A DNA stretch of 64,000 bases from an uncultured Clostridiaceae bacterium (GTDB taxonomy: Bacteria > Bacillota > Clostridia > Saccharofermentanales > UBA5734). The first letter of the stretch is position 1. Every line of letters starts with the position of its first letter. The translations under genes and the position numbers were made by a program. The stretch is taken from positions 418,634-482,633 of the forward strand of contig OW818697.1 in assembly GCA_942493365.1 (NCBI GenBank). The letters run 5' to 3'. Below, piece by piece: positions 19,469 through 20,811 of the stretch. The notes under the pieces were generated by a model, which was not told the DNA's origin, ran no database searches, and saw only the letters and a list, made by a program, of their open reading frames with translations.

Positions 19469-19738
19469 TCAACAGCAACTGGGTTCCTTGCCAGTCAGCA
19501 TGCCTTGAATAATCGCAGCGGCACAGCCGACGCCCGCGTTGACTGACAATGCACCAACCGGGCAGTTGCGTACGCAGGCGCCGCACTCCATGCAACTGTC
19601 ACGATTAACGATCTGCGCCTTGTCGTTTTGAATACTAAAGACAGCATGCGGGCAGACTGTGGCACAAAGACCGCAACCAAAACAACGGGCGGGATCATAT
19701 TCGAGCGTGACGACATTCTTCAGATACGTTTGACGCAT
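19469..19738 (-). CDS. hgcB: HgcB, ferredoxin partner of the mercury methyltransferase
   Basis: It has 'CFGCGLCATVCP' and 'CMECGACVRNCP', a conserved Cys in 'GVGCAAAI' and a C-terminal 'SCC'. An alternative GTG start at 19756 overlaps the hgcA stop. Confidence 0.85.
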   Translation of the reverse strand: MRQTYLKNVVTLEYDPARCFGCGLCATVCPHAVFSIQNDKAQIVNRDSCMECGACVRNCPVGALSVNAGVGCAAAIIQGMLTGKEPSCC

Positions 19739-19752
19739 AATGGCACATCCTT

Positions 19753-20811
19753 TCACACAAACAATTGTTCAATGTCACTGAGCAATAGCATAATGACACC
19801 CAAAATGGTGGCAATCAGCATGATGGGCAACGCCAGTTTCATCTCACGGTTGACGCCGGACGGCGAAGTATAAGTCGAACTGCCGGTAAAATTCATCGCC
19901 AAATAACCAGATAGCGAAGGAATCAGCAAAAGATAAGCCATTGCTTTCAACAAGGGCAGCGTTGAAGAAAAACCAACCAACCAACCGTTGAGCAGGGCGA
20001 TTCCGATCGCCCACAACACCCCCATCAGGGCACCTTTGAAGGAAAAAGCACGGCCGGGGATCAAAGGCAGCAGGATCGGCACAAGGATGCACCCGATAAC
20101 AATTGTCCCGGCCAACGCGTAAAGGTCGATCATGCCATAGTGACCTAAACCCAGTGTATTGAAAATGAACATCACACCGAGAATAATCGCAGCGGGCTTA
20201 AAGGTGAAAACAAACTCGGCTGGAGTCAGAATCAGGCGATCCATCGTATTGAAACGAACCTGTCGCATAGCCGAGTTCGCGATCTGTCCAGCAGCCAGAA
20301 ATGCCGGCAAATCCTCAGCTCGAACCGGTCCATAGACAACCTGAAAGCCTGTTGCGGCTGCAACTTTATGGGCTGCGATGCCGGTCGCGCCTAATTGCGG
20401 GACAATCAGCACGCGGTGACTGACTCGATTGTCGAGCCGAGTCGCTTTGATGCGCCTGACCAGCTCATCCGTGCCGAATGTACCCTTGCCCGCTGCGCAC
20501 CACACATTGATACCCTTCGTATCGAGCACCAGGATCCAGGCATTGACATGGTCGAGTTCGCTGCGCAGGTGATCGAAAGTCAACTTATAATTTGCGGTCA
20601 CCAAAACCGGTGAATCGACATCCGGTTGCCCTACCCCATACAGGCCAGGCTTGACGGTATAATCCATACGTCCCATGGTCCAGCGAGCTTTCCAGCCGCC
20701 CCAGATATCAGAAGCCTTCAGACGAGTCGAAACAATCGTCACCTCGCGTGCTGGTTCTGATTTCAATTTGCCGGTTAGTTTTGGCCTGTTGTTCAAGTTA
20801 TTCATTTTCAC
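19753..20811 (-). CDS. hgcA: HgcA, corrinoid-dependent mercury methyltransferase
   Basis: The cap-helix motif 'GINVWCAAGKGTFGT' was verified at the nucleotide level (NVWCAAGK at 20485-20508). 'VTANYKL..D' and 'PQLGA' are present, and the C-terminal half has multiple TM helices. The start is a GTG at 20811 or an ATG at 20805. Confidence 0.9.
   Translation of the reverse strand: MKMNNLNNRPKLTGKLKSEPAREVTIVSTRLKASDIWGGWKARWTMGRMDYTVKPGLYGVGQPDVDSPVLVTANYKLTFDHLRSELDHVNAWILVLDTKGINVWCAAGKGTFGTDELVRRIKATRLDNRVSHRVLIVPQLGATGIAAHKVAAATGFQVVYGPVRAEDLPAFLAAGQIANSAMRQVRFNTMDRLILTPAEFVFTFKPAAIILGVMFIFNTLGLGHYGMIDLYALAGTIVIGCILVPILLPLIPGRAFSFKGALMGVLWAIGIALLNGWLVGFSSTLPLLKAMAYLLLIPSLSGYLAMNFTGSSTYTSPSGVNREMKLALPIMLIATILGVIMLLLSDIEQLFV

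Follow-up and report, generated by a model that had tools for sequence, protein, structure and literature searches.

No genetic marker of microbial methylmercury production is known besides the genes hgcA and hgcB, so that mercury risk models gain an organism to consider with every carrier confirmed in a poorly sampled lineage. How hgcAB is controlled and what it is really for are questions raised by a locus in a 64,000-nucleotide (nt) stretch of DNA, here called the window, from an uncultured Clostridiaceae bacterium (GTDB lineage Bacteria; Bacillota; Clostridia; Saccharofermentanales; UBA5734; assembly GCA_942493365.1, contig OW818697.1, positions 418,634 to 482,633 of the forward strand). 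A first-pass annotation of the window had reported a complete hgcA-hgcB pair and predicted that the organism produces methylmercury. Is this the true mercury-methylation pair, and what controls it? We find that the window very probably carries a three-gene minus-strand unit, marR-hgcA-hgcB, transcribed from a single promoter at about 21260..21289, in which HgcA and HgcB are true Hg-methylation orthologues regulated by the MarR protein (Table 1). The operon makes the control of hgcAB directly testable in a fermentative Clostridia lineage.

The gene hgcA had been reported as an open reading frame (ORF) of 352 amino acids (aa) at 19753..20811 of the minus strand. The ORF list agrees, and the likely protein is a 350-aa product identical to database protein P0001, which begins at ATG 20805; MarR is likewise identical to database protein P0121. 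The exact HgcA and MarR sequences have a single occurrence in a large protein collection, on an NCBI contig of 2.37 Mb. An exact-match look-up of the maximal-ORF translations returned no database entry, because the database copies begin at internal ATG or TTG codons. Against the NCBIfam equivalog hidden Markov model (HMM) NF040863 (HgcA_corrinoid) the HgcA ORF scores 454.9 bits (cutoff 275, E = 1.4e-136), with residues 24-345 aligned to model positions 1-322 of 325. The N-terminal half had been described as corrinoid-binding-like, in agreement with a Pfam match of residues 48-170 to the C-terminal part of CdhD and a match of residues 45-174 only to large subunits of the corrinoid iron-sulfur protein (CFeSP) in the Protein Data Bank (PDB; E = 5e-13). 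The PDB sequence search with HgcA returned CFeSP only and no experimental HgcA structure.

In an AlphaFold model of HgcA (mean pLDDT 86, pTM 0.78, 38-sequence alignment), five long helices (residues 187-217, 225-248, 254-272, 283-309 and 315-349) come after a corrinoid-type alpha/beta domain, bearing out the multi-helix membrane half noticed earlier. Hydropathy analysis gave four strong hydrophobic segments, the fifth helix falling below the threshold used. The top Foldseek match of the model is the deposited integrative HgcAB model 9a0b_A (E = 2.9e-20, 328 columns, 43% identity), followed by CFeSP chains that cover the N-terminal domain only. The codons of the cap-helix signature NVWCAAGK read exactly as the first-pass annotation had placed them, and N100, V101, W102, C103, A105, G106 and K107 are invariant in alignments of 38 to 40 homologues from several phyla. 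HgcA combines a full-length HMM match, the cap-helix Cys motif N(V/I)WCA(A/G)GK, and a corrinoid domain with a five-helix C-terminal domain. The nearest HgcA, 70% identical, lies on a metagenomic contig of 470 kb (L001), and the named relatives are Clostridia (Oscillospiraceae, Feifaniaceae and Anaerocolumna). Most Clostridia homologues are 370-410 aa long, with an N-terminal extension that holds conserved cysteines (C-x6-CC consensus); in the same alignments this extension is missing from the window HgcA and its 70% identical relative.

The product of the adjoining gene scores 126.1 bits against NCBIfam model NF040864 (HgcB_ferredoxin; cutoff 99, E = 3.6e-37). Its two CX2CX2CX3CP motifs begin at residues 19 and 49 (CFGCGLCATVCP and CMECGACVRNCP), and Cys72 (in GVGCAAAI) and the C-terminal pair Cys88-Cys89 are present as previously described. 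HgcB is thus an equivalog match encoded directly downstream of hgcA, with both cluster motifs, the internal Cys and the terminal CC. The two genes had been described as overlapping. This holds for the maximal GTG ORF of 95 aa, which overlaps hgcA by 4 nt, but the likely start of hgcB is ATG 19738, 14 nt past the hgcA stop; the closest relative, L001, has the same gap and the same 89-aa length.

Could the pair instead be a non-methylating paralogue, either HgcAB-like or a CFeSP-type corrinoid protein of acetyl-CoA metabolism, and be silent on methylmercury? The N-terminal domain of HgcA, at residues 45-174, is homologous to the corrinoid alpha/beta domain of the CFeSP large subunit (AcsC/CdhE of the Wood-Ljungdahl pathway; PDB 4djd, 2ycl), and with the HgcAB-like fusion model NF043039 HgcA reaches 205 bits, a partial score of some size. 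Both rival models nevertheless stay far below their cutoffs, at 205.4 bits for HgcA and 55.6 bits for HgcB against 285 (NF043039) and at 87.7 bits against 306 (NF003195), whereas both genes exceed the curated cutoffs of their own models. The CFeSP likeness spans only about 125 residues (NF003195 model positions 321-445). An Fe-S domain at the N-terminus and a TIM barrel are present in CFeSP, which lacks a membrane domain; the window HgcA is without the N-terminal domains of CFeSP and has the cap-helix Cys. In the HgcAB-like fusions, homologous corrinoid, membrane and ferredoxin modules form one polypeptide, whereas in the window a stop codon separates two ORFs. HgcA keeps the cap-helix Cys motif and HgcB its full set of cysteines, and annotation of the window neighbourhood gave no acs or cdh genes near hgcAB. 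We therefore consider a paralogue highly improbable. The HMM check favours HgcA and HgcB over the paralogues and the genes are therefore hgcAB; by homology, HgcA and HgcB are true orthologues of the mercury-methylation pair, and equivalog HMMs, motif conservation and predicted structure all support a complete pair. Methylmercury production is a reasonable prediction from this gene content. The finding of hgcAB is correct but ordinary, as standard annotation models already name both genes. The pair belongs to a known gene family, and the regulator and its operator are what the analysis adds.

Table 1. Coordinates of the marR-hgcA-hgcB unit and its promoter (positions in the window)
Feature	Position	Strand	Start or basis
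Promoter with operator-like inverted repeat	21260..21289	-	Promoter scan and comparison of loci
marR, cysteine-rich MarR-family (MarR_ars-like) regulator, 147 aa	20798..21241	-	TTG 21241; maximal ORF from GTG 21250
hgcA, corrinoid protein of Hg methylation, 350 aa	19753..20805	-	ATG 20805; maximal ORF from GTG 20811, 352 aa
Cap-helix codons NVWCAAGK, residues 100-107 of the 350-aa HgcA	20485..20508	-	AAT GTG TGG TGC GCA GCG GGC AAG, direct reading
hgcB, 2x[4Fe-4S] ferredoxin, 89 aa	19469..19738	-	Likely ATG 19738 behind AAAGGA; maximal ORF from GTG 19756, 95 aa, 19469..19756

The end of marR overlaps the start of hgcA by 8 nt, with the marR stop codon inside hgcA. A scan for promoters and terminators found a single promoter-like site, upstream of marR, with none within the unit and no terminator-like hairpin. 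The Rfam scan of the window was empty, with no cobalamin riboswitch, as was the tRNA scan. The same-strand order marR-hgcA-hgcB also occurs in five other loci (L001, L080, L082, L083 and L086). Of 77 loci retrieved with HgcA, 24 (22 of the 75 genome loci) have a same-strand MarR-like ORF immediately before hgcA, and the set of 22 includes one spirochaete and one deltaproteobacterial locus with the same MarR type. The gene overlap, together with the recurrence of marR-hgcAB in several lineages, points to functional coupling of MarR with hgcAB, against its being an ordinary neighbour.

The window promoter consists of a -35-like TTGCAA (21289..21284), the intervening TTGCAATGCGCAACAGTTG and a TG-extended -10 TACAAT (21265..21260), with 18 nt between the hexamers; the ribosome-binding site GAGAGGTG lies downstream of the -10 at 21255..21248. 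A comparison of the 220-nt regions upstream of marR across ten loci brought out one common block, with the operator-like inverted repeat fused to the -10 box, whether hgcAB or the arsenite methyltransferase gene arsM lies downstream: A(G/A)TTGCA, 4 nt, (G/A)CAAC(T/A)GTT, (T/G)TGTGTTACAAT, about 10 nt, GAGGTGA and the start codon. Several loci have perfect repeat arms, for example AAAACAGTTGCA/TGCAACTGTTTT in L082 (hgc type) and ACAAAACAGTTGC/GCAACTGTTTTGT in L084 (arsM type). The window copy is TTGCAATGCGCAACAGTTGCATGATACAAT (21289..21260). A repeat finder reported no inverted repeat upstream of the window marR, because the arms are imperfect; the site emerged from comparison with the other loci. 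At two or fewer mismatches the longer operator consensus has this as its sole site in the 64-kb window, matching on both strands. The longer consensus is rarer in the window than expected by chance, which the loose pattern TTGCA-N2-6-GCAAC is not. Conserved among regulators that are only 35-66% identical, the block is by its sequence a phylogenetic footprint of a putative operator. Autoregulated MarR repressors usually have an inverted repeat placed in this way, across the -35/-10 region of their own promoter.

The window MarR has a winged-helix domain (PF01047, 45.7 bits; PF12802, 43.7 bits; Pfam) and four cysteines, C29, C30, C37 and C144. A protein search found about 100 relatives with 35-66% identity, mainly in Bacillota metagenomes. 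Among 22 clade members the stretch SCCGVTLxQCH is nearly fixed: C32, C33, Q39 and H41 are invariant and C40 is nearly so (150-aa numbering), which makes CC-x6-CH a fixed or almost fixed motif of the clade. Most of the 22 end in C or CC.

Beyond the window and L001 we inspected the gene context of nine further clade members. Four head hgcAB, three head an arsenite methyltransferase gene, one heads a methyltransferase-acetyltransferase fusion, and one lies among Acr3, an ArsC-like gene of the low-molecular-weight phosphatase (LMWP) type and ArsP. At the two of these three arsenite methyltransferase loci that were scanned with NF008823, arsM scored 312 and 291 bits (cutoff 263), and ArsN1a (231 bits, cutoff 170) follows one arsM. 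Homologues on annotated plasmids have arsenic-related neighbours as well: MarR-GNAT-ArsR-Acr3-LMWP-ArsD-ArsA on Clostridium felsineum p330 (46% identity), MarR-permease adjoining ArsN1 and ArsR on Paenibacillus pJ45TS6, and ArsC with an arsenic transporter, then MarR-ArsN2-MFS-ArsR, on Deinococcus ficus pDFI1. In ars-linked MarRs of Deinococcus, Bacillus, Priestia and Clostridia, the CC and the C-terminal C or CC align with C29, C30 and C144 of the window MarR. The regulator is encoded within an ars operon or island at the clade relatives L078, L079, L081, L084, L087, L090 and L091; the window marR heads hgcAB, and domain annotation of its neighbourhood gave no ars genes nearby. In a rough neighbour-joining (NJ) tree two hgcAB-linked branches and one arsM/arsN-linked branch stand side by side, with the ars-linked Bacillus, Paenibacillus and Deinococcus MarRs outside them.

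A precedent for such a regulator is MarR_ars. In AdMarR_ars of Achromobacter sp. As-55, As(III) or Sb(III) releases the repressor from its own and its target promoter; the protein needs Cys36, Cys37 and Cys157, and the subfamily is described upstream of arsV, arsN and arsP (Yu et al., bioRxiv 10.1101/2021.08.12.456183). From the cysteine pattern of the window MarR, and from relatives that precede hgcAB or ars genes with a common repeat, we infer that a MarR reactive towards metalloids or thiols probably represses hgcAB, its ligand being assigned by analogy. More specifically, hgcAB may here be part of a metalloid-responsive MarR_ars regulon, with a cysteine-triad MarR and the same operator before hgcAB and, in sister organisms, before arsM and arsN; we put this forward tentatively, as possible and short of probable.

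Several points weigh against these readings. The activity, the expression and the binding of MarR to DNA are here predictions from sequence, and the abstract of a study of Pseudodesulfovibrio mercurii (Desulfovibrio desulfuricans) ND132 states that hgcAB transcript abundance is no reliable predictor of methylation rates. The cap-helix stretch of HgcA is poorly modelled (pLDDT of about 58 at residues 101-110). MarR is not universal, since an Oscillospiraceae locus whose HgcA is 66% identical (L003) has no MarR upstream. The clade contexts are 11 in number (the window, L001 and nine more) and were picked for long contigs. The link to MarR_ars draws on the cysteine pattern, on 26-46% identical homologues in ars islands and on gene context, with ars-linked homologues standing in for AdMarR_ars in the NJ tree. 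The MarR of the closest relative, L001, has no C-terminal Cys. The clade also has an extra, near-invariant Cys-His (C40/H41) that lies outside the published triad and is not seen in the available description of MarR_ars; because of it, the specificity of the window MarR may differ from that of MarR_ars.

The last two points also favour a different account, in which hgcAB is genuine and MarR is an ordinary neighbour, or a sensor of redox or thiol stress or of Hg(II), that does not respond to arsenic, with hgcAB perhaps constitutive, as has often been reported. MarR regulators commonly sense oxidants through cysteines, as the background given in the MarR_ars preprint has it, and the hgc-linked and arsM-linked MarRs occupy separate sub-branches of the NJ tree, so their specificity could have diverged. 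On the other hand, the same operator is present in promoters of the hgc and the arsM type, and the window MarR keeps the vicinal Cys pair and the C-terminal Cys that are needed for As(III) sensing. We regard the account without an arsenic response as rather unlikely.

For a metalloid- or thiol-reactive repressor we propose the following. A MarR dimer would occupy the repeat that overlaps the -35 and -10 elements and would repress marR-hgcAB, and a thiophilic ligand that binds the MarR cysteines would release it. The most likely ligand, by analogy with MarR_ars, would be As(III) or Sb(III), with Hg(II) or an organoarsenical possible. Once made, HgcA would ligate the cobalt of a corrinoid through its cap-helix cysteine (Cys103), in a predicted cytoplasmic domain followed by five membrane helices. 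By analogy with the ND132 system, HgcB would reduce the HgcA corrinoid to Co(I). The reduced corrinoid would then be methylated, and the methyl group would pass from the Cys-ligated corrinoid to Hg(II), probably presented by HgcB cysteines, to give methylmercury.

The arsenic connection of the regulator also bears on what the operon is for. The operon might have been selected for corrinoid-dependent chemistry on something other than mercury, for instance a metalloid or halomethanes, and methylmercury would then be a by-product. The regulator clade is common to arsenite methyltransferase operons; ND132 hgcAB is under an ArsR-like regulator that responds to arsenic and to S-adenosylhomocysteine (SAH); and a 2026 preprint reports dechlorination of CCl4 by heterologously expressed HgcAB. 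Beside the window hgcAB, neighbourhood annotation gave no ars, mer or dehalogenase genes, and the proposal concerns the role of the pair and leaves its gene identity as it is. We consider it a somewhat doubtful alternative.

If hgcAB does belong to a MarR_ars regulon, an arsenic-type sensor would have been recruited to hgcAB twice and independently, the other case being the unrelated ArsR-like regulator of the Desulfovibrionaceae. That would speak for a selected role of HgcAB tied to metalloid stress rather than to mercury, and exposure to arsenic or antimony would be predicted to switch on methylmercury genes in such fermenters. The unit offers a compact system in which to ask whether metalloids induce hgcAB in organisms other than sulfate reducers, with a MarR of 147 aa and its four candidate ligand cysteines, a putative operator of about 30 bp and sister operons with arsM.

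Two broader generalizations about MarR and hgcAB were ruled out. A MarR gene does not lie upstream of all hgcAB, being missing from L003 and from most Desulfobacterota loci. Nor does a single MarR clade serve all hgcAB, as the Smithella/Syntrophales regulators form a distinct cysteine-rich MarR group. These regulators, marked by RCCxQD..FCEGVTFHQF and a C-terminal CC, are encoded directly upstream of hgcAB in many Syntrophales genomes, about 100-700 nt from hgcA (loci L008-L032, L042, L067 and L077). In L003, the Oscillospiraceae metagenome-assembled genome, a heavy-metal P-type ATPase gene (2840..4957, minus strand) is convergent with hgcB.

L001 is syntenic with the window on both sides of the pair, with SRAP, HAD hydrolase and NadA on one side and pta, ACPS, BKACE, thiolase, cyclase, 3-hydroxyacyl-CoA dehydrogenase and SDR on the other. 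The best named relatives of the window NadA come from a 'Clostridiales bacterium' metagenome-assembled genome (79% identity) and from Acetivibrio (65%). In the window the latter genes lie at 9995..16303 on the plus strand in the order SDR, 3-hydroxyacyl-CoA dehydrogenase, cyclase, thiolase, BKACE, ACPS and phosphotransacetylase, an order kept in L001; the cluster is possibly a fermentation module of the beta-keto-acid/lysine type. Between this cluster and hgcB lies a gene for a 1046-aa 7TM-GAF-GGDEF-EAL cyclic-di-GMP protein (16289..19429, minus strand), which starts about 87 nt after the hgcB stop. A scan of that gap found no terminator-like hairpin, and the gene might be read through from the hgcAB promoter. 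It lies in a stretch of lower GC content (43-47%) and looks like an insertion, because it is missing at the syntenic position in L001.

On the other side, zwf (glucose-6-phosphate dehydrogenase; 21385..22887, plus strand) is divergent from marR and shares with it the 143-bp intergenic region that holds the operator; it too is missing at the syntenic position in L001. The gene gnd (37865..39316, plus strand) follows about 15 kb beyond zwf. Elsewhere in the window a 2158-aa surface protein (29431..35907, plus strand) combines about eleven Big_9/cadherin-like repeats with two VWA domains. The regions 39366..43697 (plus strand) and 45659..46702 (minus strand) encode a family of five predicted lipoproteins, paralogues of 340-362 aa that all have a signal peptide, a lipobox Cys and a linker rich in Thr and Pro. 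Identity is 55-58% within two pairs and about 30% otherwise, and none of the five has a Pfam or NCBIfam match.

Regulators next to hgcAB have appeared in earlier work. In a 2020 survey, 112 genomes were noted to have a putative regulator, left unnamed, upstream of hgcAB. For Dethiobacter alkaliphilus and Geobacter daltonii, a single sentence of a 2023 paper mentions that a gene of the MarR family precedes hgcA. In the literature searched, an experimental test of an hgcAB regulator was found only for the ArsR-like one of Desulfovibrionaceae. The search, incomplete in its coverage, returned no paper that ties the MarR_ars subfamily to hgcAB, which is absence of evidence only.

The reference for the pair itself is HgcA/HgcB of ND132, the experimentally defined Hg-methylation pair, which like the window pair is encoded by adjacent genes. 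The two systems have in common the N(V/I)WCA(A/G)GK cap helix and five helices in HgcA, and the two [4Fe-4S] motifs, internal Cys and C-terminal CC in HgcB; Cys103 in the window is the counterpart of the corrinoid-ligating Cys93 of ND132 HgcA. They differ in that identity is only 43% (to the ND132-based model 9a0b_A), in that the regulator is of the MarR type in the window and of the ArsR type in ND132, and in that the window pair is known from its sequence alone.

In Pseudodesulfovibrio the ArsR-like ArsR2 is co-transcribed with hgcAB and responds to arsenic and SAH, and its homologues were found only in Desulfovibrionaceae (Gionfriddo et al., bioRxiv 10.1101/2022.10.17.512643). Like arsR2-hgcAB, the window has a small regulator gene of metalloid-sensor ancestry right upstream of hgcA, on the same strand and apparently in one transcript. 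Unlike ArsR2, which belongs to ArsR/SmtB, the window regulator is a MarR winged helix-turn-helix protein of a clade common to arsM/arsN operons of Bacillota. With MarR_ars it shares the MarR fold, an N-terminal vicinal Cys pair and a C-terminal Cys, a position at the head of its operon suited to autoregulation, and homologues upstream of arsN, an arsP-like permease and other ars genes. It differs from MarR_ars in preceding hgcAB rather than arsV, arsN or arsP and in the additional Cys-His of its CC-x6-CH motif, and the two are likened by cysteine pattern and context, not by the AdMarR_ars sequence. A regulator of the MarR_ars type in a fermentative Clostridia lineage would echo, through an unrelated protein family, the arsenic link of hgcAB in the sulfate reducers.

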